Source: an uncultured Victivallis sp.
GTDB lineage: Bacteria; Verrucomicrobiota; Lentisphaeria; Victivallales; GWF2-50-93
Length of the DNA: 64,000 nt
Direction: 5' to 3'
Assembly (NCBI GenBank): GCA_964540865.1
Contig: CAZION010000016.1
Span: 2,914-66,913, forward strand
Below are positions 8,944 through 64,000 of this stretch, piece after piece. Position 1 is the stretch's first letter; each line of letters begins with the position of its first letter. The translations under genes were made by a program, and so were the position numbers. A model generated the notes under the pieces. The model was given only the letters and a program-made list of their open reading frames with translations. It was not told where the DNA came from and made no database searches.

Positions 8944-10086
8944 ATGATGAAAAAAGAATTATATCTCATGTCGACATTGTTGATCCTGTGCTCCGCTTAC
9001 GTTGGTGCGGCTGATAAAGCTGCTCCAGCACCAGCCACAGCAGTGGCAGTTGCTCCTGCGCCAGCAGCAACACCTGCAGCTGCGCCAGTTGCAAAACCAG
9101 CCGCCAAGGATGCGGAAAAGAATGCAAATGTCGACCCTCTCGCATTCCTCCCGGAAATTGTCGCCAAAATCGGTGATGAGAAAATCACAAAGGCTGACAT
9201 TCTCGTCGAATTCAAGCCTGTAATCGCAATGATGAATGAAAGCGGACAGCTCGATTCGATCCCGGCAGATGTGTGGAAAACAGAAGTCAAGGAGAGACTC
9301 GACGATATGATTGCCACCAAGCTTCTTGTAAAGCTTGCTGAAGCCGATGGATACAAGCCGGATCCCGTTAAGGCTGAAGAGGAATTCAAGAAACTCACCG
9401 CCCAGATCCCTCCAGAACAGCTTGCGGAGACCTTTACAAAACAGGGAATGACTCCAGAGGCCATAAAGGCGAGAATTGCAATGGGACTTGCAATTCAGAA
9501 ATGGATTGAGGAGAAAGTTGCTCCAAACATTAAGGTTTCCGACGAGGATGCAGAAAAGTTCTACCGTGAAAACCAGGAACGCTTCAAGAAACCTGAAACT
9601 GTACGCGCCTCGCACATACTGATAAAAGTTGATGAAATAGATCCGGAGAAGGCGAAGGGAATGACAGATGAACAGAAAAAGAAGGCGTCTGATGACCTGA
9701 AGCAGCAGGCACTAAAAAAAGCCCAAGACATACTTGCCAAACTGAAACAGGGTGAAGATTTTGCGAAACTCGCAACTGAGAACAGCGCATGCCCCAGCAA
9801 GGAAAAAGGTGGAGATCTTGGAGCATTCGAAAAAGGGAAAATGTCCGAGGAATTTGAAAAGGCGGCATTCGCACTCAAACCAGGTGAATTGAGCGATGTG
9901 GTTGAAACCGAATTCGGCTATCACATAATCAAAACCACAGAGAAAAAGGAATCAGAATTCATGCCCTTCCAGGATGTCAAAAGTTTCCTTGTCGAAGGTT
10001 TGAAAAACCAGAAGACTTCTGAAATCATCCAGGACAAGATCGAGACTGAGAAAAAGAACAAGAAAGTTGAAATTTTTGTAAACTGA
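8944..10086 (+). CDS. peptidyl-prolyl cis-trans isomerase, SurA/PrsA-like parvulin
   Basis: The 380 aa ORF has a signal peptide, an Ala/Pro-rich linker, a SurA-like N-terminal domain, and a parvulin core (RASHILIKV...GGDLGAFEKGKMSEEFEKAAFALKPGELSDVVETEFGYHIIK). RBS AAGGTGGG lies upstream. Confidence 0.85.
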   Translation: MMKKELYLMSTLLILCSAYVGAADKAAPAPATAVAVAPAPAATPAAAPVAKPAAKDAEKNANVDPLAFLPEIVAKIGDEKITKADILVEFKPVIAMMNESGQLDSIPADVWKTEVKERLDDMIATKLLVKLAEADGYKPDPVKAEEEFKKLTAQIPPEQLAETFTKQGMTPEAIKARIAMGLAIQKWIEEKVAPNIKVSDEDAEKFYRENQERFKKPETVRASHILIKVDEIDPEKAKGMTDEQKKKASDDLKQQALKKAQDILAKLKQGEDFAKLATENSACPSKEKGGDLGAFEKGKMSEEFEKAAFALKPGELSDVVETEFGYHIIKTTEKKESEFMPFQDVKSFLVEGLKNQKTSEIIQDKIETEKKNKKVEIFVN

Positions 10087-21985: not shown

Positions 21986-21986
21986 A

Positions 21987-42073: not shown

Positions 42074-43201
42074 TTAATTTACAAAGATTTCAACCTTCTT
42101 ATCCTTCTTCTCAGCCTCAATCTTTTCCTGGACTATCTGGGATGTTTTCTGTTTCTTCAACCCTTCGACAAGAAAAGCTTTGACATCCTTGAAAGGCGTA
42201 GTTCCGGCATCAATTTTTTCAGTGGCCTTGATTATGTGGTATCCGAATTCCGTTTCAACAACATCACTCATTTCACCGGGCTTGAGCGAGAATGCAGCTT
42301 TTTCGAATACCGGTGTCATCTTCCCTCTTTCAAATGCTCCAAGGTCTCCGCCTTTCTCTTTACTGGGGCATGCGCTGTTCTCAGCTGCGAGTTTCGCAAA
42401 GTCACCGCCCTGTTTCAGCTTGGCAAGTATGTCCTGGGATTTTTTAAGGGCCTGTTGTTTCAGGTCATCAGACGCTTTCTTTTTCTGTTCGTCGGACATT
42501 GCTTTGGCCTTCTCAGGGTCTAATTCATCGACTTTTATAAGTATGTGTGAGGCGCGGATGGTTTCAGGTTTCTTGAAACGTTCGAGATTTTCATTGTAGA
42601 ACTTCTCAGCATCCTCGTCGGAGACTTTTATATTTATTGCAACTTTCTCCTCAATCCATTTCTGAATTGCAAGACCAATTGCGATTCTACCCTTTATTGC
42701 TTCGGCGGTCATTCCCTGTTTAGCAAGTGTTTCCGCAAGCTGTTCTGGTGGAAGCTGTGCAGTAATTTTCTTAAATTCCTCTTCAGCCTTGACTGGATCG
42801 GGCTTGTAACCTTCGGCTTCCGCAAGTTTCAGCAACAGTTTTGTAGCTATCATGTCGTTAACTCTCTTCTTGACTTCTGTCTTCCAGACTTCCGGGGGGA
42901 TTGTGCCGAGCTGTCCATTTTCTTTCATCATTGCAATAACAGGCTTGAATTCAGCCATAATTTCAGTCTTTGTGATTTTTTCATCCCCGATTTTTGCAAC
43001 AAGATCAGGTACGAATGCTAGAGGATCAGCATTTGCATCCTTTGCAATGTCTCCGGCAGCTGGCTTTGCCGGCACATTAATAAATGGCTGCGGTTTTGTA
43101 GCTGGCGGTGCAGGCGGTGCAGTTTTCTCTTCTGCATTTACACAGTTGTATGAGGAGCAGAGGACTAATAACGCAAACATCATGCTTAATTCTTTTTTCA
43201 T
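42074..43201 (-). CDS. peptidyl-prolyl isomerase, SurA/PrsA-like parvulin (paralog of 8944..10086)
   Basis: The 375 aa ORF is collinear with the 8944..10086 product and highly similar to it (for example ...DPLAFVPDLVAKIGDEKITKTEIMAEFKPVIAMMKENGQL... and GGDLGAFERGKMTPVFEKAAFSLKPGEMSDVVETEFGYHIIK). RBS AAGGTAGGG lies upstream. Confidence 0.85.
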   Translation of the reverse strand: MKKELSMMFALLVLCSSYNCVNAEEKTAPPAPPATKPQPFINVPAKPAAGDIAKDANADPLAFVPDLVAKIGDEKITKTEIMAEFKPVIAMMKENGQLGTIPPEVWKTEVKKRVNDMIATKLLLKLAEAEGYKPDPVKAEEEFKKITAQLPPEQLAETLAKQGMTAEAIKGRIAIGLAIQKWIEEKVAINIKVSDEDAEKFYNENLERFKKPETIRASHILIKVDELDPEKAKAMSDEQKKKASDDLKQQALKKSQDILAKLKQGGDFAKLAAENSACPSKEKGGDLGAFERGKMTPVFEKAAFSLKPGEMSDVVETEFGYHIIKATEKIDAGTTPFKDVKAFLVEGLKKQKTSQIVQEKIEAEKKDKKVEIFVN

Positions 43202-49578: not shown

Positions 49579-50598
49579 ATGTGGAATATCTTTGGCACAA
49601 ATAAAAAAGACGGCGAATCTTCGGTACTCGTTGACGTAAAACCCAGTATTGAATTGCTGAACGGAAACTGCTTTGAGTGCGGCTCCTGTTATACCGTCCT
49701 TAGCCTGATGAACTTTACCCCGCTGTCAATGGAGAAATGCACACAGTGTGAAGCTCCAATATTTATTCCTTACAATATCAAGGACTTCTGGCTTTACCGC
49801 CCTCTTGGCGGGGGTGGAATGGGCAGTGTTTACAAGGCGGTTCATTACAAATATCCTAATATGGAGTTTGCCGTTAAAATATTACCTAGGAACAATAGGG
49901 CTGATCAATGGTTAATTGAGGCTCTACTAAAAGAGGCGAGCATTGGTAAGACATTTGGCAGGCATCCCCATCTCACATCCGTTGCCGACTATGGTTGTTA
50001 CGGAAACGAATATTTCTGTGCCATGGAGTTTTGTGAAGGCAGAAGGCTGGATCAGATTATTGAGTCAGCAGATACGATTCCTCAGAAATATGTGCTTCTC
50101 TGGGCCCTTCAGATTCTTTCAGCCGAACAGAGAATCCACGATTGCGGCTACCTCTACAGGGATCTAAAACCCCAAAACCTATTAATTGACAAAGAGGGAA
50201 ACGCCCATATAATAGATTATGGTATTTGCGTAAAAATTGAAGAAGCTACAAATAAAGATGTAAAAACCGTGTCCGGCTCCCCACTATATATGCCTCCTGA
50301 AAGAATTTGCGGCATGCCCGAAAACATGAGCAGCGAGATCTACAGCCTAGGAATGGTTATGTTTCATGCTCTTGCCAGAAAAACCTACTATACTGCAACC
50401 GGAGCATTCGAAGTTGCAAAAAAGCATGTGTCCAGTCTTAGAATAGCCAATGTCGTAAACCGAATGCCTGGCAATGTAAGTCCGAAAATCGCTAATATAC
50501 TAGATAAAATGCTTGCCAGGATACCAGCAGAACGCTATCAGACATACAAGGAAACCGCCATGGCAATCAAAGATGTATATAATTCCCTGAGAAGCTAG
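49579..50598 (+). CDS. serine/threonine protein kinase with N-terminal zinc ribbon
   Basis: The 339 aa ORF has CFECGSCY...CTQCEAP, then LGGGGMGSVYKAVH, FAVKIL, YRDLKPQNLLID, DYG and SPLYMPPE (Hanks-type subdomains). Confidence 0.85.
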   Translation: MWNIFGTNKKDGESSVLVDVKPSIELLNGNCFECGSCYTVLSLMNFTPLSMEKCTQCEAPIFIPYNIKDFWLYRPLGGGGMGSVYKAVHYKYPNMEFAVKILPRNNRADQWLIEALLKEASIGKTFGRHPHLTSVADYGCYGNEYFCAMEFCEGRRLDQIIESADTIPQKYVLLWALQILSAEQRIHDCGYLYRDLKPQNLLIDKEGNAHIIDYGICVKIEEATNKDVKTVSGSPLYMPPERICGMPENMSSEIYSLGMVMFHALARKTYYTATGAFEVAKKHVSSLRIANVVNRMPGNVSPKIANILDKMLARIPAERYQTYKETAMAIKDVYNSLRS

Positions 50599-51667: not shown

Positions 51668-53029
51668 TTATTTTTTCCTCGGATCAAATGAATAAAGACC
51701 AGTGGTTATAGTCCAGGCGTCATCCATCGGCATCTTTTTGTTTTCATGTTCTTTGCCCCATGAGTCGGAGTATATGATCTCATTCTTCTCCTTGTTATAA
51801 CCGGAAATTACGCGCATATGCCCCCCCGCCACCTGCGGAAGCCCCTTCTCCTTCACCACCCCGAGTATCACGCTCCATATGAGCGGGATGCCCAGGTCAA
51901 CGTGTTTCATGATATCACCCTGAAAATTTTTAAATCCGCTTTTATCTTTTTCGCATCTTGCCTTCTTCAGCAGTTCTGGATCCATGTCATTGTAAATTCC
52001 GCCGACATCGATGCTGTTTCCATATGTTATCTGTTTTTTGCCGGCTTTCTTTGCAAATTTGTTGTACTCATTCACCATCCCTATGAACGATTGAATCTTG
52101 ATTTCCTCGTGAGTTCTCACCAACACACCAAACTTAGACTGGACTTTTTTCAGCATATCTAACATTTCCTCAGAGCTGGTTCCTTTTGTGGCAGAAGAGT
52201 TTGAAAGCTGAGCAAGCATGTTCTGATCGACGTCCGTTCCATAATATTTTAGAATACGTTCAGCAGTCGCAACGGCACAGTAACCCTTGGCCCCCTGGTC
52301 AACCATGGGAATATTTTCAATATAAACAAATCCGTCCGCATCCTTCTTCACATTCTGTTTGATGTCTATTGCTGAAGCTGTATCAGCTTTTCTCGGATAG
52401 GACGCTATTCTCCTCGGATCGTTTTTCGGATCGTATTTACCTATTATGATCTTAATGTATTCCGCCCTGAATTTTATTGTCCTGTCTTTCGCCCTGGGAG
52501 CTTCAAGATCCTGTGTCTTGATGCGCTCACTTGCACTCCACCTTAGTTCAATGGCAAGGTTATTGTTCTTAACCCAGACCTTCTTTTCAAGATACATTCC
52601 CGTCTTAAGTCTTTCTTTTGGTATGGTAACCCCCTTGTCCAGGCTCCATCCGTCCAACTTGCCAATCATTTCATCAACTGTCGCCTGAAAAGTTTTTTCA
52701 TCGCTTATATCCCCGGAATCGCCACGATTATAGGTTAAAATTTCAATCTGGCCTACTTTACCCTCTTCAAACCTGATAATTGTCTCCCATGATTTCATGC
52801 CGAGGAATGTCATACCCGGACTATTGCTGTACCCTGGGTATCTGACTTCGTTTTTCTTATCAGAGAGCCATTTGAAATACATTTCATTGCTTCCATCAAG
52901 AAACTTATCGGATGAGATGTCCCAAAGTTTTTCATCATCGATAAAGGTTTCAAGTTTGGAAAAATCGGCAGAGAATGCGTTAAGACAAAACGTAAGTATG
53001 GCTAAAGCCGGGATAAATAGCTTGTTCAT
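51668..53029 (-). CDS. secreted protein with C-terminal papain-fold (C39-like) cysteine peptidase-like domain
   Basis: It has a signal peptide (MNKLFIPALAILTFCLNAFSA). The C-terminal half has GAKGYCAVATAERILKYYG (candidate catalytic Cys) and GGHMRVISGYNKEKNEIIYSDSWG (candidate His). I prefer ATG 53029 over 53035 because of GGAGA spacing. Confidence 0.4.
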   Translation of the reverse strand: MNKLFIPALAILTFCLNAFSADFSKLETFIDDEKLWDISSDKFLDGSNEMYFKWLSDKKNEVRYPGYSNSPGMTFLGMKSWETIIRFEEGKVGQIEILTYNRGDSGDISDEKTFQATVDEMIGKLDGWSLDKGVTIPKERLKTGMYLEKKVWVKNNNLAIELRWSASERIKTQDLEAPRAKDRTIKFRAEYIKIIIGKYDPKNDPRRIASYPRKADTASAIDIKQNVKKDADGFVYIENIPMVDQGAKGYCAVATAERILKYYGTDVDQNMLAQLSNSSATKGTSSEEMLDMLKKVQSKFGVLVRTHEEIKIQSFIGMVNEYNKFAKKAGKKQITYGNSIDVGGIYNDMDPELLKKARCEKDKSGFKNFQGDIMKHVDLGIPLIWSVILGVVKEKGLPQVAGGHMRVISGYNKEKNEIIYSDSWGKEHENKKMPMDDAWTITTGLYSFDPRKK

Positions 53030-53050
53030 TTCCATTCTCCAGCGGATTAT

Positions 53051-53200
53051 TGGATTGCTGGATTAATGGATTGTTGTAAATCAAAGAGTTATGCAAAAAA
53101 TCACCATATGGGAAAAATCCGAAATGCCTATTCTGAAATTTTCTTAAAATCCAGTATCTATGGTTTTTCTTGAACTCAAACCCAATAATCCAGCAATCCA
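53051..53200. repeat. intergenic hairpin element C (TTGAACTCAA core)
   Basis: A perfect 15-bp inverted repeat, TGGATTGCTGGATTA (53051-65) with TAATCCAGCAATCCA (53186-200). The left arm is a run of TGGATT words. The core TTTTTCTTGAACTCAAACCC (53170-79 palindrome-like) lies next to the right arm. Confidence 0.7.
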
Positions 53201-53473
53201 TTAGTCCGTCATCCTGTGGGATGACTGTGAAATCTTTATATTTCATGCCAGGTGAAGGTAGTCAGACGACCGGGTAAAATCAAGATGGAATTTTGAAATT
53301 TGTAGAATTAACGCAATTGCAATCTTCACATTACGCTCTCGGAAAAGAAACTGCTCCAGGCAGAACTGCATGAATTCTCCCAAATACTTGCCACTTACGA
53401 GATTGCTCGGAAAAAGTCTGCATAACTTTCAGCCTCATATTTTGCCAATCTTGGGATATTGATCCGGCAGAAT

Positions 53474-54790
53474 TCAATCCGTATGATACCGGCAGTCGGT
53501 CAGTGTAAGCCATTTCCAGGTTGGAAGTGTAGGGATCTCATAACAATCATGGGTGATGATTTTTTCCTGGTTATACGTGAGGATCATCCCGTGTTTCAAG
53601 TCGAATTCTTTCATCGCCTCGGCAAGCCCTGAGAGTTCACGCTTCTCGTTTTTCTGATTCAACTCCCAGCATACCTGAATGGCCTTGTCGGGTTTTGTTC
53701 CCGATTTCAGGATGAAATCGCATTCTCCTCTGCCTTTGAAGAAAAACAATTGGTTTCCTCTGCGTAAAAGTTCCTGAGCCACTATATTCTCAAGCAGCTT
53801 CCCTCTGTTTTCGGAAAAAGGGGAGCCTAGAAATGAGAAACCGGTATCAATAAGATAAATCTTGCACGGATTCATAGTTCGGACCCTGACGGAATATGAG
53901 AATTTTTCCGACTTGAGAATGAAAAAGGCGCCCTCGAGGAATTTGAGATAATTGGCTAGAGTTCGTTTGCTGCCGTGCAGACCTGCTGACTTCAGCTGTT
54001 TCTCGAATTTAGACACGGAAAATTGTTCGGAGTAATTCTCAAGTATGCTTCTCATGATTCTGTCGAGAATGTGTTCGGCCTTTATCCCATGTCTTTCAAT
54101 GACATCCCGGTGGAATATTGTGTCGTAGTAATTCTGGAGAAGTTTTCTTTTGTCGCCCTGATTGATCTTTGACGCGACTTCAGGATACCCACCATATTGC
54201 AGATAATCGTCGAATGCGGCGAGGACTTCGCCTTTGCGGGCGGTATGCAGTGTGACTTCATCGAATGGGACATTCCTGAATGAGAGGAATTCCATAAATG
54301 AAAACGGGAACATGATCTCATCGGTGTAGCGTCCTCGCAGTTCAGTTGCAATTTCCCTTGAAAGAAGGGAAGAGTTGCTTCCGGAAACTATTATTTTGAA
54401 TTTCCTCCTGTTGTGCAGGGATCTGAGCATTCTGCTCCAGTCCCGGATGTTCTGGACTTCGTCGAAAAACAGATATTGAGGAGTTTTCCCAGTAAGTTTG
54501 TTGAAAGAGACAAAAAGATTGTCAATGTCTTCGGCGACGAAATCCTTGAGTCTGAAATCTTCAAAATCAACAAAGAGGATGTCATCTCTTTTCGCCAGGC
54601 CGGAATCAAGGAGTTCTTTGATAAGCTGGAGCATGAAATATGTTTTTCCGGCTCTGCGCGGACCTACAATGGCGAGAACAGATGTCAGCTCCCCGCATTT
54701 GACAATGGGTTTTAGCCGTGGCGTCAGTGATGGTATTGGTGTGTCGGTAAGCCATTCCGCTATTATATTCTGCAAGATTTCAATTTTCAT
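53474..54790 (-). CDS. AAA-family ATPase with DUF4143 C-terminal domain
   Basis: It has the Walker A motif VGPRRAGKTYFM and Walker B LFFDEVQ, and a C-terminal region typical of DUF4143 (CDFILK...). The start is ATG 54790 (MKIEILQNII) or 54808. Confidence 0.8.
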   Translation of the reverse strand: MKIEILQNIIAEWLTDTPIPSLTPRLKPIVKCGELTSVLAIVGPRRAGKTYFMLQLIKELLDSGLAKRDDILFVDFEDFRLKDFVAEDIDNLFVSFNKLTGKTPQYLFFDEVQNIRDWSRMLRSLHNRRKFKIIVSGSNSSLLSREIATELRGRYTDEIMFPFSFMEFLSFRNVPFDEVTLHTARKGEVLAAFDDYLQYGGYPEVASKINQGDKRKLLQNYYDTIFHRDVIERHGIKAEHILDRIMRSILENYSEQFSVSKFEKQLKSAGLHGSKRTLANYLKFLEGAFFILKSEKFSYSVRVRTMNPCKIYLIDTGFSFLGSPFSENRGKLLENIVAQELLRRGNQLFFFKGRGECDFILKSGTKPDKAIQVCWELNQKNEKRELSGLAEAMKEFDLKHGMILTYNQEKIITHDCYEIPTLPTWKWLTLTDCRYHTD

Positions 54791-54954
54791 AAGGGCACAT
54801 TCTCGCAAACTGTTTACTTGAAGTAAACATTATTATAGCATAGTGTTTACCGATGTCAAATACCGGATATCCGAATAAGCGCTGAAGTTTATTTGGATTG
54901 GAAGCTCATCAACCGCTTTCGGATTTGTCTTTTCCGATAGTATTTCCTGAACAA

Positions 54955-55049
54955 TAAAGAATCTCCTGACGGGCATCCTATCCCCGCTGCAAGCAACGGG
55001 GTATTACGGACGCCCTCCCTCGCCTCACGGCGGGCCGGAGATTCTTTAT
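54955..55049. other. compact GC-rich multi-stem element in AT-rich divergent intergenic region
   Basis: The outer 13-bp stem is ATAAAGAATCTCC (54955-67) with GGAGATTCTTTAT (55037-49). It encloses GGGCATCC/GGACGCCC, the hairpin CCCCG-CTGCAAGCAA-CGGGG, and a CGCC-TCAC-GGCG hairpin. Confidence 0.45.
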
Positions 55050-55169
55050 AACAAAAGAAAATCAAAGCCGCCCCAAGGGTCTGGGAATTTGACCCATTAA
55101 GATGAAAAATCCATAATTTTTTATTGTTTAGAGCTTGACAAAGATCTATTATTATCTAATATTATCGTC

Positions 55170-56273
55170 ATGAAAGCAATAAGTAACAATTTTGAAGATT
55201 TCAGGGTTCAATCGAAAGATTCTTCTTTTACCCAGATAGAACGGCATGTTCTGGAGATGATAAAGAACAGAACGTTGTCGCCGGGTGAAAAGCTTCCACC
55301 GACAAGCAAATTGACAAAACAATGGAGAGTCAGTCCTTACTCAATCCACCAGGCGTTCAAAAGCCTGATGGAAAAAGGTTATTTGACCCGCAAGACCCGT
55401 GGAGGCACCTTCGTCACCGACAAAGCTTCAACGGTAACGAGCAATATTGGATTTTATTACTTCCATGAGCGCAAGCTATTGACATTGTCAGCCGTTGAGG
55501 CCATGCACAAGATTCTTTCGTTAAGCAATTTTGATGTAAAGCTGATCCCATTTGACAGGGATTTTTTTACTGAGATAGATCTTCTGGCTGACGCACGTCG
55601 ACGTGATCTCAAGGGTATAATTATTACCGTACTGAACACGCCCGAGTGTTTGAATGCGATGAAAAAATTGGAGGAATCCGACCTACCTCATCTGCGCTTT
55701 GTCAACCGCGATTTTGACGATCAGCTCAATTCGCCACTGCTGATAGAGAATGACGAAAAGGCTATGGAGGAAATGATCCGCACGCTGCTCGAGAAGGGGC
55801 ATGAGGCTATTGGCTATGTTGGGAGCCCGTCAGCTCTGGGCAGGGAGGCTGTTTATCAAAAAACCGTGGCGTGCACCCGGCGTTATAAGCCGTCATGGCG
55901 CCTAACCACGACTGTTTGGCCGCCGATCGGTTCTCCCTTGCCGAACGGAGCGCAAATGATGAGAGACTACTTGGCTGTCAATCCTGATCTAACCGCTGTG
56001 ATAATTGATCATCCATTGGAGGCGAATTTTTTGATTGATGAGGCTGTACTTATGAATCGTCCAGTACCGGATAGACTCAGCGTTATTTGCATGAAAGACT
56101 GGAGCGAACAGGGAGTTGAGATGAAAGCGAGCGCCTTCTGGTCTTCTCCTCTCCTTAGCGGATCCCTGGCCGCTGAATACCTGCTCTCCATGATGAAAGG
56201 GGAAACTGTTCCCAGACGGATTTACGTTGATTTAGAACTTAAAGACAGAGGTACAATTGGAACTGCGAGCTAA
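55170..56273 (+). CDS. GntR-family HTH regulator fused to a periplasmic-binding-protein (LacI-type sugar-binding) domain
   Basis: The 367 aa ORF has an N-terminal winged helix (GEKLPPTSKLTKQWRVSPYSIHQAFKSLMEKGYLTRKTRGGTFV), followed by a PBP1-like alpha/beta repeat region. Confidence 0.75.
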   Translation: MKAISNNFEDFRVQSKDSSFTQIERHVLEMIKNRTLSPGEKLPPTSKLTKQWRVSPYSIHQAFKSLMEKGYLTRKTRGGTFVTDKASTVTSNIGFYYFHERKLLTLSAVEAMHKILSLSNFDVKLIPFDRDFFTEIDLLADARRRDLKGIIITVLNTPECLNAMKKLEESDLPHLRFVNRDFDDQLNSPLLIENDEKAMEEMIRTLLEKGHEAIGYVGSPSALGREAVYQKTVACTRRYKPSWRLTTTVWPPIGSPLPNGAQMMRDYLAVNPDLTAVIIDHPLEANFLIDEAVLMNRPVPDRLSVICMKDWSEQGVEMKASAFWSSPLLSGSLAAEYLLSMMKGETVPRRIYVDLELKDRGTIGTAS

Positions 56274-56311
56274 AGATGATTTTAGATAACAAATAAACAA
56301 GGAGGCGATTT

Positions 56312-57013
56312 ATGAATACGAGATTTAAAAGATGGTGTAAAACTGGACTGTCTCCTGTACCAGTCGAGATCTGGCGTTGGAAAACTGCAGCACTAAGCAA
56401 GTCATTCACACTGATTGAGCTGTTGGTGGTTATAGCCATTATCGCGATTTTGGCTTCCATGCTGTTACCGGCACTGAGTAGGGCCCGTGGTGTTGCAAAG
56501 AAGATTGTTTGTGTAAGCAATCTAAGGCAATTTTATCTGGGCTTTAGCTCGTACCAAGACGCTTTTAACAGGGATCTGGTCACACAGTCGATAACCAATG
56601 AGAAAAATACTGGTTCCGTTTATTGGAATTATTATAGCAGTTGGGTGGTGCAGGAGATTTGTCCGGGCATGAGCGCTCAAAAATGGATAGACGGAACATC
56701 CATCAATACATGTCCGGCGGAAAACCGTGACTGGTATATACCATATTGCTATGGGAACAATTATGCGCTTGATCATATTAAGAAGGTCAACAAGGTGCCA
56801 AGGCCGGAAAATGTAATGTATCTAATAGATTACAATAGAAGCGCTGGCCCTGGTCTAGACCCAACTAGTGATAGCTCCATCAATCCAAGCAACTCCGCCT
56901 GCCGAGTCGCCTACCGGCATAATGGCTTTGCCAATATCATGTCAGTGGCGGGCAACACCCTTGACACCAAACGATTTCCTCTGGTAACAGATGCTCAACC
57001 GTGGATTCCTTAA
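56312..57013 (+). CDS. prepilin-type N-terminal cleavage/methylation domain protein, H-X9-DG (DUF1559-like) family
   Basis: The 233 aa ORF has [28 protein letters not shown] after a 31 aa leader. The C-terminal segment [15 protein letters not shown] resembles the H-X9-DG motif. The strong RBS AAGGAGG lies 7 nt upstream. Confidence 0.85.
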
Positions 57014-57104
57014 GTTTTAGAAGTGAACTTTTAACCTTTAAATGGGTTTTTAAAGAAAATATAGGTTGGAATTCAAAATTACTTAAATAGCAAAAAGGAG
57101 AATT

Positions 57105-60100
57105 ATGTTAATGAAATTATTGATTGCTATGATGTTTATTCTGGGAATGGCATGTCACGCATTCGACGGAAATATTCGAATTGACATTGACGCAATGAGA
57201 AATGATATACCGCTGGAGAAAGCCAATGCCAGCCCCGGCTTGAAATGGTTTTATACGCATGCATGGCCCAACTACTTGAACTTGGAAAAACACAATAACC
57301 TAGTTTTTGAGGGAACGGCACCCCTTTCCGAGGAATGGCAGAAATTCGAGTTCGAGTTCACTCCTGGGAAAAGCGAAGAACTAAAGCTTTATGCTCGTGG
57401 CGTATATACCCTGGATGACTCGAAAACTGCTTGGGTCGCTTACACTGGTTTCAAAGAGAGCGGAACGGAACTCAGCAATGGAGATTTTTCTCAAATTAAA
57501 AACGGCGTTCCCGAAGGCTGGCTGATCAACCCGGGTCTGTTCGATACTTCCGCCAAACCACCTTTGATCTACGGCGCTTTTGGTGCTTTCGGCGTGAAAA
57601 CACTCAAGGTTACGGCCGACAAGCGAGTGAGAATATCCTTCATGGCCCGTAAAGGAAAAGAAACAGACTGGAATGAGCTTCCGGTGAGATTCGATAACAA
57701 AGCAATTGAAACTTCTTTGGTTAAACTGGTTAAATTCAAGCTTGATAAAATCGAATTCTTAAAAACTAATTCAATTTCAAATCTTCATAAGCCCGATGCA
57801 AACTATGAATCTGACTTAAAACGTTTGGGGTTAATTTCGTGCAAAATTGGAGATATTAATGATAAAATAATTTCCTGCGTCCCACTAAAAGCTGGCGCAG
57901 TAATGTTGCCCTTCAAGCAGGATTTAAGCATATACGACACTGTAAAAGTTACCATAACACCGTTATCCGGGAGTTTCAAAGCTGCTGATTTTGGGGTCGC
58001 AATCAATCAGGACAAGCAGTATTATCCGGGGAAATTGGAAAATATTTCTGAAATAATTATAAACAAACCCGTCGAATTGCTGTTCGATATTTCTCAGACG
58101 GCAAGAAACAATCCCCAGTATTTTCGTTTTTATTTCAGCAGGACTGGAGATAAAATCGATGAGGAAGAAAAAGATCCATCATGCTTTTGGTTCTTCAGTG
58201 ATATATTGACATTTCCTCCACTGTTCGACAAGGGATTGACGGCAAAGAATATCACGGAGAAGTCCCCGGACAAGAACTTCAAGTTTGGCCGGCCGACACC
58301 GGAACCGCGTTTCGTTGGGAATCCTACACCTTCCGGAAAGGGAAACGTAACTAAAAAGTCCGTTCCGGTGGAACTGCTCGAGGATTACGGCGTGGACCGG
58401 ACGGCCTCGGTTCGATTCGGTTTTCCGCTTCCTGAAGGTGGCCTGTGTGATATAAAAAAGATGCAGGTACTTAATCCTGAGGGAAAGCCGGTCCCTTTCC
58501 AGACTGCAGGCACCGCCTTCTGGCCTGACAAATCGCTGAAATGGGTGCTTTTGCAATTTGATGCACCATTAAAGGCAAATGAAAAAGCAATTTACCAAGT
58601 GGTGTTCGGTGAAAACGTCGACGAAGCTGAAAAGGGTGACACGTTAATCCTGGCGGATAATGGTGATATCATAAGCGTCGATACCGGAAAACTCCAGGCG
58701 ACGATTGACAGAAATAAATTCAACCTGGTCAAGGATGTGAAGATCAAAAGTGGCAGAAAGTGGATAGATGCGGGTGGCTTCGCGGTGAATGGGCTGGAAT
58801 TGCGCGACGAAAATGGACGACTGTTCAGCAGTGCTATGATCGACCCCGAAAGTGTTGAGATCGAAGAGCAGGGGCCGGAACGTATCGTTCTCAGAGTTCG
58901 TGGCAAATATGGCTCCACAGACAAGGATGCCACGAACATGAGCTATGAAGTAAGGCTCTCTTTCGCCCGTGGCTCTGAGAAAGTCGGGATAGCAGTTTCA
59001 ACGACCAACACTAATTTGGAAAATGAGTTTACTGATATCGACAGTCTTTCCTGCGCATTCGTTCCTGCCTCTCCCATTCAGGGGGGTAAGGTTTTGCTGG
59101 ATGCCCAGAACTTGCAGACCATGCGGCAAGGCCCCTGCCAAACCGAGGAAATTGTCCTGAATCCGAATTCTCAGACTCGGCTGTTCCAGGAGGATGAACA
59201 GATCCTATCAGGCGCAAAAGGACATGAGAACTCCAGATTGACTGGAGCTGTCGAAGTGGACACAGCGACAGGGCCGGTTCGTGCTGTTTTGAAAGACTGC
59301 TGGCAACGCTGGCCCAAAGCCTTCTCGGTCAACAAGAAGGAACTGGTTTTCGAGCTGTTGCCAAAACAGCCGTCACGCAACTTTTACCGGAATCTTCCCT
59401 ATTATCTGTTGTTTCCCTTCTGTGAAGGCAAGTATAGGCTGAAATGGGGAGTCAGCTTTACTGAGAATATCGACTTGGATTTTGGAAGTATGAAGTCTTT
59501 GGCCGAGGCGGATGCGGAAACCAATCTGCCTGTAGTAGCAGCGATTCAGAGAGATTGGTACTATCAGACTAAAGTACTGCCTGGGGCGACTCCCGGAGAT
59601 GACCGGCAATTTGATGTCTGGGACGATGCCGTCGCCCGCTGGTTTAATGAGCATATGGAATTTAAAAAGACCCATCATCCCTACGGCTTTTTGAATTACG
59701 GTGACTGGTTTGGCGAACGTGGGGGAACAAACTGGGGCAACAATGAATACGACATCGCCCACGGCCTGTTCATGGATTATATCCGCACGGGCAACCGCGA
59801 CCATTACCGTTGGGCCGTTAGGGCGGCTCAACACGATGCTGATGTCGATACCGTTCATGCCTATCCCGATCCGTACTATGTAGGCGGGGATATCACGCAC
59901 TCGTTCTGTCACAACGCCGGCTGTTTGCTGGGTCGGAAGTTGACGCTGACCCTGTCAAATCCCTACAGCGGAAACGCGCTAGCGTCGAACGGGCATACCT
60001 GGCTGAGAGGCATGGTTGACTCCTGGTTGCTCGCGGGGAATGCCCGGACGCAGGAGTCCGCGCTGACGCTGGGAGAGCATATCGTCTGGAATCCGCCTCT

Positions 60101-60692
60101 TGACACCAAGAACTTCGGTGTCTACCTGCGTGCTCAGGGCTATCCGCTCATCGCTCTCGCCGCCTTGTATGACGTCAACCACGATCCCATGTACAAGGAA
60201 GCCGCCGAAAAAATTGTCGAACTCGTGATAGGTCAGCAGAGCTTTGACAAAGGTGGAGCTTGGTACCACAAGGTATGGGGGGTGGGAGATATGCCCGTTC
60301 AATGCTGTTTGCAGGTTGGTATTCTCACGCAGGGAATGAGCGACTATTATAAGATGACGGGCAATCCAGAGGCAAAGAAATCCATTATTGCCTCCTCCGC
60401 TTGGCTGGCCGAATCTTGGCACGAAAAGGCCAATGGCTGGCCAATGGTTGCCACCTGGGATGGTAAGGCGCAAGGACGCGAACCGGGTTGTAGTGATCAG
60501 AATATGCTCGAAGCACCACCACTGGCGTATGCCGCTTTGCTGGGCGGAAACAGCAAATGGTATGACATAGCAAAAATGACTATGGAACAAGTTCCGACTA
60601 AGGAGATGCCTAGTTATGGTAAGCCCTTTTCTCAGATGATCATGTTTGCTCCGGAGTTGATTAGTGGTATCTATGAATGGCAGCAGAAGTAA
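57105..60692 (+). CDS. large secreted protein, putative glycan-active enzyme (N-terminal CBM-like domain, C-terminal alpha/alpha-barrel-like domain), family unknown
   Basis: The 1195 aa ORF has a signal peptide (MLMKLLIAMMFILGMACHA). It has SNGDFSQIKNGVPEGWLI (CBM4/9-like). The C-terminus has NYGDWFGERGGTNWGNNEYDIAHGLFMDYIRTGNRDHYRWAVRAAQHDADVD, HSFCHNAGC and QCCLQVG. RBS AAGGAG lies upstream. Confidence 0.75.
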   Translation: MLMKLLIAMMFILGMACHAFDGNIRIDIDAMRNDIPLEKANASPGLKWFYTHAWPNYLNLEKHNNLVFEGTAPLSEEWQKFEFEFTPGKSEELKLYARGVYTLDDSKTAWVAYTGFKESGTELSNGDFSQIKNGVPEGWLINPGLFDTSAKPPLIYGAFGAFGVKTLKVTADKRVRISFMARKGKETDWNELPVRFDNKAIETSLVKLVKFKLDKIEFLKTNSISNLHKPDANYESDLKRLGLISCKIGDINDKIISCVPLKAGAVMLPFKQDLSIYDTVKVTITPLSGSFKAADFGVAINQDKQYYPGKLENISEIIINKPVELLFDISQTARNNPQYFRFYFSRTGDKIDEEEKDPSCFWFFSDILTFPPLFDKGLTAKNITEKSPDKNFKFGRPTPEPRFVGNPTPSGKGNVTKKSVPVELLEDYGVDRTASVRFGFPLPEGGLCDIKKMQVLNPEGKPVPFQTAGTAFWPDKSLKWVLLQFDAPLKANEKAIYQVVFGENVDEAEKGDTLILADNGDIISVDTGKLQATIDRNKFNLVKDVKIKSGRKWIDAGGFAVNGLELRDENGRLFSSAMIDPESVEIEEQGPERIVLRVRGKYGSTDKDATNMSYEVRLSFARGSEKVGIAVSTTNTNLENEFTDIDSLSCAFVPASPIQGGKVLLDAQNLQTMRQGPCQTEEIVLNPNSQTRLFQEDEQILSGAKGHENSRLTGAVEVDTATGPVRAVLKDCWQRWPKAFSVNKKELVFELLPKQPSRNFYRNLPYYLLFPFCEGKYRLKWGVSFTENIDLDFGSMKSLAEADAETNLPVVAAIQRDWYYQTKVLPGATPGDDRQFDVWDDAVARWFNEHMEFKKTHHPYGFLNYGDWFGERGGTNWGNNEYDIAHGLFMDYIRTGNRDHYRWAVRAAQHDADVDTVHAYPDPYYVGGDITHSFCHNAGCLLGRKLTLTLSNPYSGNALASNGHTWLRGMVDSWLLAGNARTQESALTLGEHIVWNPPLDTKNFGVYLRAQGYPLIALAALYDVNHDPMYKEAAEKIVELVIGQQSFDKGGAWYHKVWGVGDMPVQCCLQVGILTQGMSDYYKMTGNPEAKKSIIASSAWLAESWHEKANGWPMVATWDGKAQGREPGCSDQNMLEAPPLAYAALLGGNSKWYDIAKMTMEQVPTKEMPSYGKPFSQMIMFAPELISGIYEWQQK

Positions 60693-60737
60693 TATTCCCT
60701 TGACGGGGATTGGCAAAAATAAACAAGGAGGCGATTT

Positions 60738-61445
60738 ATGAATACGAGATTTAAAAGATGGCGTAAAACTGGACTGTCTCCTGTACCAGTCGAAGTATGG
60801 CGTCGGGTAACAACAGCACGGAGCAAATCATTCACACTGATTGAGCTGTTGGTGGTTATAGCCATTATCGCTATTTTAGCTTCCATGCTGTTACCGGCAC
60901 TGAGTAGGGCCCGTGGTGTTGCAAAGAAGATTGTTTGTGTAAGCAATCTAAGGCAATTTTATCTGGGCTTTAGCTCGTACCAAGACGCTTTTAACAGGGA
61001 TCTGGTCACACAGTCGATAACCAATGAGAAAAATACTGGTTCCGTTTATTGGAATTATTATAGCAGTTGGGTGGTGCAGGAGATTTGTCCGGGCATGAGC
61101 GCTCAAAAATGGATAGACGGAACATCCATCAATACATGTCCGGCGGAAAACCGTGACTGGTATATACCATATTGCTATGGGAACAATTATGCGCTTGATC
61201 ATATTAAGAAGGTCAACAAGGTGCCAAGGCCGGAAAATGTAATGTATCTAATAGATTACAATAGAAGCGCTGGACCTGGTCTAGACCCAAGTAATGTTGA
61301 TACCTACATCAACCCAAGCGACCCTCTCTGCCGAGTCGCCTACTACCGGCACAACGGATTTGCCAATATCATGTCAGTGGCGGGCAACACCCTTGACACC
61401 AAACGATTTCCTATGGTAACAGATGCTCAACCGTGGATTCCTTAA
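60738..61445 (+). CDS. prepilin-type N-terminal cleavage/methylation domain protein, H-X9-DG family (tandem paralog)
   Basis: The 235 aa ORF is identical to the 56312..57013 product over the central ~130 codons. It differs in the leader ([25 protein letters not shown]) and in the C-terminal loop ([25 protein letters not shown]). Confidence 0.85.
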
Positions 61446-61529
61446 GTTTTAGAAGTGAACTTTTGAATGGGTTCTTAAAGAAAACATACGGTATAACTCG
61501 AAAATACTTAAGTAGTAAAAAGGAAAATC

Positions 61530-64000
61530 ATGTTAAAGGAATTATTGATTGCTATGATGTTTATTCTGGGAATGGTCTGCCACGCATTCGACGGAAATAT
61601 TCGAATTGATATTGACGCAAGAAGAAATTTTATTCCTCTGAAAAACGTCACGGTCGGCTCCGGGCTGACTTTTACGTATCCGAATGGATGGCCCAATGCT
61701 CCTTTTGACAACAAAGCTAAGTCTGAGGATAATGATCTTATTAGTATGAGGTATCAATACAACCACCTGGTTATCGAAGGGACGGAGCCGCTTAGCGGTG
61801 AATGGCAGAAATTCGAGTTTTCGTTCACACCGGAGAAGACGGAAGAGCTGAAGCTCTATGTCCGCGGGGGCTATGACCGGAATGACGCGAAAACTTCCTG
61901 GGTTGCTTACCGGGATTTTTACGCCACTGGAACGGAACTTGCCAACGGGAATTTCTCAGAGCTTAAAGATGGCGTGCCAGATGGGTGGCTGATCAATGAC
62001 GGGCTTGTCACTTCTTCCGACAAAACACGATTCATCTACGGTTCATTCGCCGCTTTTGGCATAAAGACGCTTCAGGTTAAAGCCGGGGAAAAAGTGACGA
62101 TTTCCTTCATGGCCCATAAGGGTATCAAAACCGACTGGGGCGTAATGCCCGACCAGGACTCCAGGGGTGCTGCTGCTCATAGCAGTCTGAATTTGGAAAT
62201 CAGTGCCTTGGGATTTAAATCATGCGAAGAGGCGAAATTTGACAAAGTCAACAAAATTGTTTCATGCCTCCCGAATAGATCTGGTGGTGTGCTGATTCCA
62301 GTCAATCAGGACTTAAGCAAGTACAGTAAAGTCAAAGTTGTCATAACTCCTTTAGTCGGGAGTTTTAAAAATTCTGATTTTTCAGGATCGATTTTTCAGG
62401 AATCGCAATATTATCCATGCCAACAGATAAAATGTTCTCCCGTTGAAATGAATAAACCTGCTGAAATACTTTTTGATCTTTCAAAGGCGACAAGAAATAA
62501 TACTAAATTTTTCCGTTTGTATTTCAGCAAAACTGAGGGTAAAACCGAAGCCGTCGAATTCAAAATAAATAAAATCGAATTTCTTTATCCCGAAAAGATC
62601 GATTCATCCTGCTACTGGTACTTCAGTGACATATTGGCATTTCCCCATCTTTCGGATAAGGGATTGACAGCCGAGGAAGTCAGAGCGAAATCTCCGGATA
62701 AGAACTTCAAGTTTGGCCGCTCAACTCCGGAGCCGCGTTTTTTCTCCAATCCTGTTCCTGCCGGGAAGGGGGCAATAACCAAGGAATCCGTGTCTGTGGA
62801 GGTACTGGAGGAATACGGAGTGAATCGTACGGCTTCGATCCGTTTCGGCTTTCCGCTGCCGGAAGGAGGCCTGTGTAATATAAAAAAGATACAGGTGCTT
62901 AATCCTGCGGGAAAGCCGGTGTTTTTCCAGTCCGCCGCCACCGCGTTCTGGCCTGACAAATCGCTGAAATGGGTGCTTTTGCAATTTGATGCACCATTAA
63001 AGGCAAATGAAAAGTCCATTTACCAAGTTGTGTTCGGTGAAAACGTCGACGAAGCTGAAAAGGGTGGCACGTTAATCATGGCGGATAATGGTGATATCAT
63101 AACCGTCGATACCGGAAAACTCCAGGCGACGATTGACAGGAAAAAATTCAACCTGGTCAAGAATGTGAAAATAAAAAGTGACGGAAAATGGATGAATGCG
63201 GGTGGCTTCGCGGTGAATGGGCTGGAACTGCGCGACGAAAAAGGACGATTGTTCAGCAGTGCTATGATCGACCCCGAAAGTTTTGAGGTAGAAGAACAGG
63301 GACCGGAACGCATCGTCTTCAAGGTGCGTGGTAAATATGGCACCGCCGATAAGGGTGATACGAATATGAGCTATGAAGTACGGCTCTCTTTCGCCAGGGG
63401 CTCTGAAAAAGTCGGGATTGCAGTTTCAACGACCAACACTAATTTGGAAAATGAGTTTACTGATATCGACAGTCTTTCCTGCGCATTCGTTCCTGCCTCT
63501 CCCATTCAGGGGGGTAAGGTTTTGCTGGATGCCCAGAACTTGCAGACCATGCGGCAAGGCCCCTGCCAAACCGAGGAAATTGTCCTGAATCCGAATTCTC
63601 AGACTCGGCTGTTCCAGGAGGATGAACAGATCCTATCAGGCGCAAAAGGACATGAGAACTCCAGATTGACTGGAGCTGTCGAAGTGGACACAGCGACAGG
63701 GCCGGTTCGTGCTGTTTTAAAGGACTGCTGGCAGCGCTGGCCCAAAGCTTTCACTGTAAACAATAAAGAGTTGCTCTTCGAATTGCTGCCCAAGCAGCCG
63801 TCACGCAACTTTTACCGGAATCTTCCCTATTATTTGTTATTTCCCTTCTGCGAAGGCAAGTATCGGCTGAAATGGGGAGTCAGCTTCACGGAGAATATCG
63901 ACTTGGATTTTGGGAGCACGAAGTCTCTGGCCGAGGCTGATGCTGAAGTCAATATGCCAGTTGTGGCGATTGTGTCCCGTGACTGGTATTACCGGACAAA
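61530..64000 (+). CDS. large secreted protein, paralog of 57105..60692 (3' end beyond the window)
   Basis: Absent from the ORF track because no stop lies in the window. ATG 61530 gives MLKELLIAMMFILGMVCHAFDGNIRIDIDA..., collinear with copy 1. The N-terminal ~350 codons are strongly diverged. Later regions are 85-100% identical at the nucleotide level. Confidence 0.8.
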   Translation, partial: MLKELLIAMMFILGMVCHAFDGNIRIDIDARRNFIPLKNVTVGSGLTFTYPNGWPNAPFDNKAKSEDNDLISMRYQYNHLVIEGTEPLSGEWQKFEFSFTPEKTEELKLYVRGGYDRNDAKTSWVAYRDFYATGTELANGNFSELKDGVPDGWLINDGLVTSSDKTRFIYGSFAAFGIKTLQVKAGEKVTISFMAHKGIKTDWGVMPDQDSRGAAAHSSLNLEISALGFKSCEEAKFDKVNKIVSCLPNRSGGVLIPVNQDLSKYSKVKVVITPLVGSFKNSDFSGSIFQESQYYPCQQIKCSPVEMNKPAEILFDLSKATRNNTKFFRLYFSKTEGKTEAVEFKINKIEFLYPEKIDSSCYWYFSDILAFPHLSDKGLTAEEVRAKSPDKNFKFGRSTPEPRFFSNPVPAGKGAITKESVSVEVLEEYGVNRTASIRFGFPLPEGGLCNIKKIQVLNPAGKPVFFQSAATAFWPDKSLKWVLLQFDAPLKANEKSIYQVVFGENVDEAEKGGTLIMADNGDIITVDTGKLQATIDRKKFNLVKNVKIKSDGKWMNAGGFAVNGLELRDEKGRLFSSAMIDPESFEVEEQGPERIVFKVRGKYGTADKGDTNMSYEVRLSFARGSEKVGIAVSTTNTNLENEFTDIDSLSCAFVPASPIQGGKVLLDAQNLQTMRQGPCQTEEIVLNPNSQTRLFQEDEQILSGAKGHENSRLTGAVEVDTATGPVRAVLKDCWQRWPKAFTVNNKELLFELLPKQPSRNFYRNLPYYLLFPFCEGKYRLKWGVSFTENIDLDFGSTKSLAEADAEVNMPVVAIVSRDWYYRT

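Follow-up and report, generated by a model that had tools for sequence, protein, structure and literature searches.

How do two neighbouring copies of one gene cassette come to be identical to the last nucleotide in some places and barely alignable in others, and what might a pilin-like protein be doing, twice over, directly ahead of a giant secreted protein? These questions are raised by positions 56291 to 64000 of a 64-kb stretch of contig CAZION010000016.1, from an uncultured Victivallis sp., a Lentisphaerae bacterium of gut/sediment type; this whole stretch, the DNA that was analysed, is referred to below as the window. The reading that we favour, at a probability of roughly 0.6, is that the locus is a sugar-regulated operon made up of a regulator and two successive pairs of a pilin-like gene and a secreted-enzyme gene, which arose by an old tandem duplication and was homogenised in part by gene conversion. 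Its features, in window coordinates, are:

55170-56273, forward strand: regulator of 367 residues with a GntR-type helix-turn-helix (HTH) and a LacI-type periplasmic-binding-protein (PBP) fold (Pfam GntR and Peripla_BP_3)
56291-60716, forward strand: tandem unit 1, 4426 bp, with ribosome-binding site (RBS), pilin-like gene 1, enzyme gene 1 and a 24-bp junction (direct-repeat families D1-D5, identity profile)
56312-57013, forward strand: pilin-like gene 1, 233 residues with a 31-residue leader (PF07963, TIGR02532)
57105-60692, forward strand: enzyme gene 1, 1195 residues, with a putative Sec-type signal peptide at residues 1-21, an accessory beta-sandwich, a variable region and a PcRGLX-like three-domain core
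57168-57674, forward strand: predicted N-terminal accessory beta-sandwich of enzyme 1, residues 22-190 (predicted local distance difference test, pLDDT, of 84.5 in the AlphaFold2 model)
57675-58205, forward strand: indel-rich, most diverged enzyme segment, residues 191-367 (pLDDT 30-47; identity 14-60% with gaps; synonymous divergence, dS, 1.47; ratio of nonsynonymous to synonymous divergence, dN/dS, 0.29)
58206-60689, forward strand: predicted PcRGLX-like core of enzyme 1, residues 368-1195 (Pfam, AlphaFold2, Foldseek)
59703-59996, forward strand: toroid cluster of D867, E881, D883, H910, D913, D915, H932, H936 and H964, a candidate active or metal site
60717-64000, forward strand: tandem unit 2, cut at the window end (repeat families, identity profile)
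60738-61445, forward strand: pilin-like gene 2, 235 residues (PF07963), orthologue of the pilin gene on the outgroup contig L081
61530-64000, forward strand: enzyme gene 2, its first 823 codons, open to the window end with no stop codon in translation
56453-56847, identical to 60879-61273, forward strand: pilin-gene conversion tract, 395 bp (exact string identity)
58992-59290, identical to 63420-63718, forward strand: enzyme-gene conversion tract, 299 bp (exact identity), residues 631-728 in the central beta-sandwich

The direct-repeat families tie unit 2 to unit 1 at a start-to-start spacing of 4425-4432 bp, and the tandem unit of about 4.43 kb that had been proposed from the bare sequence thus recurs from 60717 onward. 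Each unit starts at the RBS, 21 bp 5' of the pilin start codon, and ends 24 bp 3' of the enzyme stop codon, with the junction at 60693-60716 being a short unique sequence between the enzyme 1 stop codon and the pilin 2 RBS; no paralogue lies elsewhere in the window. Between the units the overall identity is 78%, and enzyme copy 2 is 74% identical to copy 1 over its first 823 codons. These averages conceal the mosaic that the original prediction had described: a 100-nt sliding profile is far from flat, running from 100% in the two tracts to below 60%, with indels, at 57185-58240. By string comparison both identical tracts lie precisely where they had been placed, each being bounded by mismatches on both sides and occurring only twice in the window. 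Likewise, the heavy divergence noted for the first ~350 codons of the large proteins is evident in the alignment of the first ~367 codons, with 189 identical residues in 413 columns, of which 74 are gapped.

The silent sites carry the history of these layers. When only codons for identical residues are counted, silent differences amount to 87/207 in the enzyme N-terminus, 39/183 in the core 5' of the tract, 0/97 in the tract and 33/80 in the sequence 3' of it; in the pilin genes they amount to 0/123 in the tract and 10/84 in its flanks. The deficit is significant for both the enzyme tract (the remaining core having 72/263, Fisher p = 1e-11) and the pilin tract (against its flanks, Fisher p = 9e-5), and when the 118 differences of the ungapped core (1171 nt) were permuted 20000 times, an identical run of at least 299 was obtained in 0 permutations. 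The Nei-Gojobori comparison of copy 1 with copy 2 gives a dS of 1.3-1.5 for enzyme residues 22-367, 1.0 for residues 368-470, 0.30 for residues 471-630, 0 for the tract at residues 631-728 and 1.33 for residues 729-823, along with 0.15-0.27 in the pilin flanks. That the tandem duplication is old follows from silent sites already saturated (dS ~1.3-1.5) at the enzyme N-terminus and over some of the core; later gene conversion partly re-homogenised the cassettes, leaving layers of differing age (dS of 0.3, 0.15-0.27 and 0), and the 395-bp pilin tract (from unit 1 to unit 2) and the 299-bp enzyme tract are the latest of these events.

Two contigs of other assemblies, L081 (from ENA, 2142 nt) and L079 (3186 nt), serve as outgroups. 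L081 carries a regulator 92% identical to that of the window, followed by a pilin gene that in the flanks of the tract differs from copy 2 at merely 4/162 and 1/232 sites and from copy 1 at 17 and 36 sites of these flanks, whereas inside the tract it differs from both copies at 26/395 sites. Because L081 matches copy 2 in the flanks and neither copy in the tract, the simplest reading would be that copy 1 overwrote the centre of the copy 2 pilin gene in the window lineage. The enzyme of L079 shares 97-98% identity with copy 2 over the variable N-terminal stretch, has 32 private differences relative to both copies within the 299-bp tract, and is copy-2-like only 5' of that tract and copy-1-like beyond it, alternating between both types elsewhere. 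This switching between copy-1-like and copy-2-like segments suggests that exchange among these paralogues is ongoing in the population. Tracts of zero silent divergence are hence embedded in diverged sequence with outgroups unlike either copy, and the earlier proposal of ongoing gene conversion over conserved cores is sustained by both the silent-site statistics and the two outgroup contigs. L081 (positions 1-2142, corresponding to window 54871-57063) also places a copy-2-type pilin gene directly after the regulator and, compared with the window, is missing ~140 nt upstream of the regulator; the number of units may accordingly vary among relatives, e.g., by loss of unit 1 through crossover in the identical 45 bp at 56291-56335.

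The same outgroups bear on an alternative account of the identical tracts, namely extreme purifying selection on an embedded nucleic-acid element such as a regulatory RNA or an antisense open reading frame (ORF). Identical 84-residue antisense ORFs do lie in both pilin tracts (56522-56776 and 60948-61202), and one terminator-like hairpin is present twice, at 59066-59088 and at 63494-63516. However, such antisense ORFs are a mechanical consequence of the duplication, and because the relatives' orthologous contigs differ at 26/395 and 32/299 tract sites, the tract sequence is not so constrained, which leaves this account barely credible. A more mundane origin would be an artefact, metagenome assembly or polishing having merged the reads of paralogues or strains and so produced the identical tracts or even the tandem order. 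This would suit the source, a metagenome-type contig of 68.7 kb, and L079 and L081, at 3186 and 2142 nt, do break in or near these genes, as repeats would. Against it stand the unique junction at 60693-60716, divergence at three graded levels instead of all or none, reading frames that stay intact in both copies across the tract boundaries, the presence of each module type in independent assemblies and the tandem arrays of the same gene family in other metagenome-assembled genomes (MAGs), and we regard an artefact as very improbable.

Gene conversion having accounted for the identical parts, the diverged N-terminal parts of the enzymes might be read, as in the original prediction, as a diversification of the specificity regions. 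The region-wise dN/dS of 0.21-0.29 in the N-terminal 367 codons (0.05-0.18 in the core), a comparison of two sequences only, does not bear this out, and diversifying selection on the enzyme N-terminus was therefore rejected. Given those ratios, the divergence there appears to be old and unhomogenised, not demonstrably adaptive.

What, then, is the large protein? It had been described as a secreted protein with an alpha/alpha C-terminus that belongs to no nameable family; the former description is upheld by AlphaFold2 and Foldseek, and the latter gives way to two Pfam domains above their gathering scores and a PL26 lyase as the top fold in PDB. The RIFT barrel PF19501 is matched with 34.4 bits (gathering score 22.1) at residues 421-481 and the central beta-sandwich PF21345 with 40.6 bits (23.5) at residues 517-631, profile positions 4-120 of 360 being aligned. 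The alpha/alpha toroid PF21346 stays at 15.9 bits, below its cut-off of 23.8, while the model shows paired helices in this part and the Foldseek alignment to 5xqo extends over ~976 columns. The AlphaFold2 model (27 sequences) has a pLDDT of ~90 over residues 368-1195, which are all-beta at 418-792 and form paired helices at 837-1194. Among solved structures the only sequence relatives are those of PcRGLX (E of 5e-9 with the single sequence and 7e-20 with a profile of 17 sequences), and in the Foldseek search of PDB the top 13 matches are all PL26 PcRGLX chains (E ~1e-23 to 2.8e-25), the best being 5xqo_A (E 2.8e-25, TM 0.62 on target, 15% identity), followed by domain-level beta-sandwich matches and the lyase toroid 5noa. 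Together these predictions give the large protein a PcRGLX-like three-domain fold of RIFT barrel, beta-sandwich and alpha/alpha toroid.

The catalytic module nonetheless falls short of family-level likeness to PL26, with 15% identity and a phmmer E of 0.15 for the C-terminal domain alone. The family gathered around the window protein is large, with 3008 cluster representatives at E <= 1e-3, of which 298 remain at E <= 1e-30, all of the matches spanning residues ~355-1195, and with 205 confirmed genome loci; most of the 78 loci that were kept come from Lentisphaerae, Verrucomicrobia, Planctomycetes and Armatimonadota, and a few from WS1, Limnochordia and Zipacnadia. Going by these comparisons, the large protein appears to be part of a distant uncharacterised subfamily of the PcRGLX-like superfamily and not a demonstrable member of PL26.

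In 122 family representatives of at least 800 residues, D867, E881, D883, H910, D915, H932, H936 and H964 are 100% conserved, R1009 is found in 99% and D913 in 93%. The HSFCHNAGC and QCC motifs had been taken as hints of a Cys/metal site, a candidate that was rejected: C935 is conserved in 7% and C940 in 1% of these representatives, the majority consensus of a 17-sequence alignment has no Cys at the QCC position, no Cys column is invariant, and the residues that are invariant are His and Asp/Glu. In the HMMER alignment D867, E881, H910 and D915 align to identical residues of PcRGLX, a Ser stands opposite D883, N880 and Y882 are likewise not shared, and H932, H936 and H964 lie outside every PcRGLX alignment obtained.

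Two chemistries can be weighed against this background. One is a PL26-like beta-elimination, PL26 (EC 4.2.2.24) being given in PMC13501991 as the exo-rhamnogalacturonan lyase family; we hold it tentatively, at somewhat less than even odds. The other, a possible but still more tentative choice, is hydrolysis, in which the enzyme would be a glycoside hydrolase using the invariant Asp/Glu of an (alpha/alpha)6 toroid, perhaps together with a metal held by His, much as other GH families with a toroid do, to attack a glycan that is neutral or mixed, the rest of the proposed operon remaining unchanged. The conservation of five acidic residues (D867, E881, D883, D913 and D915, with D913 at 93%) would suit a hydrolase, as would the generic likeness of toroid hairpins to GH76 and a neighbourhood of DUF4434 and Gfo/Idh/MocA-like genes (the latter by N-terminal reading and a weak tblastn match) in place of obvious uronate-catabolism genes. 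Several relatives further have weak matches to PF07944 (GH127), and one of them, P0010, is named "glycoside hydrolase family 127 protein" by NCBI. However, the only significant relatives with a matching domain order are PL26 lyase chains, the toroid 5noa too is that of a lyase, the window protein has no PF07944 match at E <= 0.01, and the Cys/Zn site of GH127 is absent from the family. The GH127 beta-L-arabinofuranosidases (PF07944) use a Cys nucleophile in a Cys3-Glu Zn site, and membership in GH127 was rejected on the latter two grounds. The GH76 likeness (E ~1.5e-3) was likewise rejected, as a generic Y-L-x-x-A toroid hairpin repeat and not a catalytic match.

Ahead of this core lies the part in which the two copies differ most. 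By our own reading of the sequence, the protein presumably starts with a Sec-type signal peptide, MLMKLLIAMMFILGMACHA, cleaved before FDG. The N-terminus had been labelled "CBM-like", for carbohydrate-binding module; residues 22-190 are modelled confidently as a beta-sandwich, for which Foldseek found no PDB fold match at E <= 1e-3. A local hmmsearch shows this family-specific domain, in one copy or two, at the start of many members of the family, other members having a different N-terminal module, a distribution like that of accessory binding modules, for which the name "CBM" would be unsupported. Stand-alone ORFs of 209-218 residues consisting of this domain (L020 9950-10606, L058 9980-10610 and L061 2887-3517) lie just upstream of full-length enzyme genes that carry it as well; each may be a split gene, a frameshift or a binding module on its own.

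The pilin-like protein invites a parallel dissection. The prediction of an H-X9-DG prepilin-like gene is right as to the prepilin type: PF07963 N_methyl is matched with 27.4 bits in copy 1 and 31.2 bits in copy 2 (cut-off 21.2), TIGR02532 with 22.3 bits in gene 1 (cut-off 16.3), and the N-terminus shows the hydrophobic helix and FTLIE motif with Glu at +5. It does not carry over to the DG motif, the C-terminal motif of the window pilins being H-x9-AG, with Ala in place of the Asp; TIGR04294 finds no match even at E <= 10, and PF07596 stays below its cut-off in copy 2 (16.5 bits against 23.3) and is not matched in copy 1. In alignment A4 the AG motif is in register with the DGH of canonical homologues, the C-terminal RHxGxxN...G is shared, and an (A/G)GN variant is common to seven other aligned homologues; the same alignment sets apart P0174-P0180 and P0193 as an H-X9-DG-type pilin subclade with (A/G)GN instead of DGH. 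At least 7982 of the 8000 candidates scored are homologues at E <= 1e-3, and among the 120 best listed many that match over ~85% of the length carry PF07596/DUF1559 and several are annotated as H-X9-DG. As the homology to annotated H-X9-DG/DUF1559 proteins is clear (E ~1e-20), the window pilin is best placed, by sequence comparison, as a variant subclade of the H-X9-DG/DUF1559 prepilin family of Planctomycetes, Verrucomicrobia and Lentisphaerae (the PVC bacteria). Solved pilins match only the first ~50 residues after the leader, with weak matches to GspG/GspH models at residues 31-73, and the globular domain has no sequence match to any of them. The closest non-identical relative (P0174, 51% identity) lies on a contig where, within genes 139-2968, the pilin adjoins AbiEii, DUF6922 and bAvd/23S_rRNA_IVP-like genes (defence or diversity-generating-retroelement-associated families), with a cut 132-residue ORF ~540 bp downstream.

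Does the pilin-like gene belong to the enzyme, or does it just happen to stand next to it? The 64-kb window has only two prepilin motifs, both within the module. Across the family, 66 of the 78 fetched enzyme loci had room upstream, and 11 of these have a pilin-like ORF as their immediate upstream neighbour on the same strand, at gaps of -3 to 198 bp, where ~0.9 would be expected from the 1.4% background in the flanks (binomial p = 2e-9, or 4e-4 with an assumed pilin background of 5%); three more loci have one directly downstream. The adjacency that the original prediction had pointed out thus goes beyond chance. Full-length pilin orthologues with 41-46% identity accompany enzymes that share the N-terminal domain in L012, L015, L037 and L049, and a regulator that combines a GntR-HTH with an SBP_bac_1/8 sensor domain comes ahead of the cassette in L018, L007 and L002. 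A pilin subclade has thus been inherited with the enzyme family, several of the loci being under a sugar-sensing regulator.

Alongside these pairs, one contig (L002, 817-10064) carries on one strand a GntR+SBP regulator, a pilin, an 806-residue beta-helix protein, two further pilins and a PcRGLX-like enzyme, i.e., a pilin-like gene directly before a different class of secreted enzyme. Among rumen Lentisphaeria MAGs, L074 (530-13141) has three tandem PcRGLX-like genes and L072 (2271-9795) two, the enzyme genes being interleaved with DUF4434 and pilin genes and canonical H-X9-DG pilins preceding the arrays. Because both of these contigs carry tandem enzyme arrays, tandem amplification of the cassette is recurrent.

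The converse view is that the pilin-like gene is a mere frequent neighbour, the numerous H-X9-DG genes landing at operon starts and then being co-inherited. This is in line with the 83% of testable enzyme loci that have no pilin, with the pilins elsewhere that precede a beta-helix protein, an SGNH esterase, unannotated proteins of 450 and 1374 residues or other pilins, and with a literature that, as far as searched, describes no function. It has to contend with the 11 pilins seen against ~0.9 expected, the consistent strand and short gaps, the full-length orthologues travelling with enzymes of the same N-terminal domain, the confinement of the window's only two prepilin genes to the module, and the pilin core kept identical in both units by gene conversion, and is in our view unlikely.

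At the head of the operon, the regulator matches PF00392 GntR (47.3 bits) and PF13377 Peripla_BP_3 (41 bits), both above cut-off, which confirms its earlier designation as a GntR/PBP-type sugar regulator and makes it a member of the GntR family with a PBP-fold effector domain. It has no tblastn match at 1e-5 in the other enzyme-family loci, in which the sensor domain is of the SBP_bac_1/8 type. The intergenic gaps are short (38 bp from regulator to pilin 1, 91 bp from pilin 1 to enzyme 1 and 45 bp from enzyme 1 to pilin 2), and a consensus scan found promoter-like sites only upstream of the regulator, at 55089-55163, and neither promoter nor terminator between the genes of the units; from this we infer that the five genes form one transcription unit. 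The gene 3' of the L079 enzyme is Gfo/Idh/MocA-like by N-terminal sequence reading and a weak tblastn match, which suggests that such a gene follows the copy-2-type enzyme. Elsewhere in the enzyme family, neighbouring genes encode SGNH/GDSL esterases, an esterase, beta-helix proteins and DUF4434 proteins, and the esterases, beta-helix and Gfo/Idh/MocA-like genes point to a complex, probably esterified glycan as the substrate.

The proposed operon would thus work as follows. On binding a sugar product the regulator would release or activate the operon; the enzyme, exported by the Sec pathway, would be an extracytoplasmic, exo-acting depolymerase, its substrate being a complex glycan, probably acetylated and containing uronic acids. 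With most of the difference between the copies lying in the accessory N-terminal regions, the substrate context targeted would probably differ as well. The N-terminal helix of the pilin-like protein would serve as its anchor, and the protein might assist in the secretion, retention or presentation of its cognate enzyme or of that enzyme's substrate.

Several observations weigh against this picture. The window is a metagenome-type contig; the toroid is only marginally PcRGLX-like in sequence (PF21346 below cut-off and E = 0.15 on its own), and P0010 bears a GH127 name in NCBI. The prepilin cleavage site, between SKS and FTLIE, has a Ser at -1, and Gly is found at that position in 0/22 aligned sequences; with Ser in place of the canonical Gly, prepilin processing is uncertain. 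As to the pairing, 55/66 enzyme loci lack an upstream pilin, and the correlation of pilin with enzyme divergence (Mantel r = 0.66, 4/5000 permutations) shows co-inheritance and not interaction, as would be expected from co-inheritance in an operon alone. Moreover, no PcRGLX-like gene occurs in 80 unbiased pilin-sampled metagenome loci (0/80), in which 55 pilin-like ORFs have downstream sequence of at least 1.5 kb; ~7 of these 55 are followed by a large ORF of at least 600 residues whose N-terminus resembles a signal peptide, as judged by eye or with a crude regex. With 0/80 such loci, the pairing is specific to a subclade of Lentisphaeria and no general rule of the pilin family. The least supported step, also to be counted here, is that the pilin-like protein assists secretion, retention or substrate capture, which we consider rather doubtful.

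The remainder of the window lies outside these subjects. Directly upstream of the regulator, on the reverse strand (51668-54808), are an AAA_14/DUF4143 ATPase and a 455-residue protein with Peptidase_C39-like domains, the latter with what we take, by our own reading, to be a signal-peptide-like N-terminus; a perfect sigma-70-like promoter (12/12) is found at 54859-54832. At 19937-24230 (reverse strand) a 682-residue DUF2961 protein (132.7 bits) is encoded immediately downstream of a 747-residue glycyl-radical enzyme (PFL-like and Gly_radical), an unusual companion for a domain that is putatively glycan-active, with 2 bp between stop and start. Two paralogous SurA-like PPIC-type peptidyl-prolyl isomerases, at 8944-10086 (forward strand, 380 residues) and 42074-43201 (reverse strand, 375 residues), share similar Ala/Pro-rich N-termini after the signal peptide and lie 32 kb apart on opposite strands, and a eukaryotic-type Ser/Thr protein kinase of 339 residues (Pkinase, 144.9 bits) is encoded at 49579-50598 (forward strand). 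The rest of the window (GC content, i.e., guanine plus cytosine, 46.5%) is presumably ordinary chromosomal housekeeping, to judge from N-terminal sequences that we take to be those of pyruvate phosphate dikinase, RNase PH, pyruvate:ferredoxin oxidoreductase, MnmG, MurC, PurD and GAPDH.

Where the interest of the locus lies can be stated in the same graded terms. The duplication and conversion make a clean textbook example, unsurprising on their own. Of moderate interest, and directly testable, are the conserved succession of a regulator, a variant pseudopilin and a secreted enzyme and the large uncharacterised enzyme subfamily, and the pilin/enzyme gene pairing is under-described. PVC bacteria encode many H-X9-DG/DUF1559 prepilin-like proteins, for which, as for Lentisphaerae pseudopilins, the literature searched establishes no function (the functional link with the enzymes had from the outset been called unestablished, and rightly so); here, the present locus and those related to it give a specific case that can be put to the test. 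A functional pairing, if there is one, would account in part for the way in which Lentisphaerae arrange the breakdown of glycans outside the cell. Being large, and having a single characterised relative, a fungal PL26 lyase with 15% identity, the enzyme subfamily is a reasonable target for the discovery of carbohydrate-active enzymes (CAZymes). The most far-reaching version would have the variant pseudopilin dedicated to the adjacent enzyme (either as an adaptor for secreting or tethering this particular cargo or as a subunit that captures the substrate), and would make the cassettes a Lentisphaerae counterpart of the polysaccharide utilization loci (PULs) of Bacteroidota and the PcRGLX-like subfamily, with its invariant cluster of D867, E881, D883, H910, D915, H932, H936 and H964, a new metal-dependent CAZyme family distinct from PL26, and we think it improbable in this full form.

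Among known systems, the mosaic identity of the locus, its sharp tract edges, zero silent divergence and an outgroup that keeps the pre-conversion sequence are those of the concerted evolution of tandem paralogues, a general phenomenon in bacteria, for which tracts of 0.3-0.4 kb with graded older layers are typical and nothing unusual. With PcRGLX of Penicillium chrysogenum (PL26; PDB 5XQ3/5XQG/5XQJ/5XQO), whose catalytic residues were reportedly defined by mutagenesis by Kunishige et al. in 2018, the enzyme shares the order of three domains, a fold match over the whole length and the motif YGFLNYGD...W.N.E...RTG...R.A...RH...VD, including D867, E881, H910 and D915; however, the identity is 15% only, the window toroid is under the Pfam cut-off, PcRGLX lacks the extra ~350-residue N-terminal region, and it is fungal whereas the window family is bacterial (PVC/Armatimonadota).

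The pilin-like protein resembles H-X9-DG/DUF1559 proteins (TIGR04294, PF07596) in the N-terminal cleavage motif, the Glu at +5 and the length of ~230 residues, but departs from them in the change of the DG Asp to Ala, the Ser at -1 and scores that do not reach either model. With the pseudopilins GspG-K of type II secretion systems (T2SS), for which Sec-exported degradative enzymes are a typical class of cargo, it shares the class-III-type N-terminal helix, whereas canonical pseudopilins are encoded in a gsp operon and not beside single cargo genes; no T2SS machinery genes occur in the 64-kb window. Finally, when compared with the PULs of Bacteroidota, the locus has no SusC/SusD pair and differs in the type of regulator and of envelope protein; the analogy is a functional one only, and consists in the shared logic of a sugar-sensing regulator, a non-catalytic envelope protein and secreted glycan-degrading enzymes, combined in a cassette that has been duplicated and diversified.

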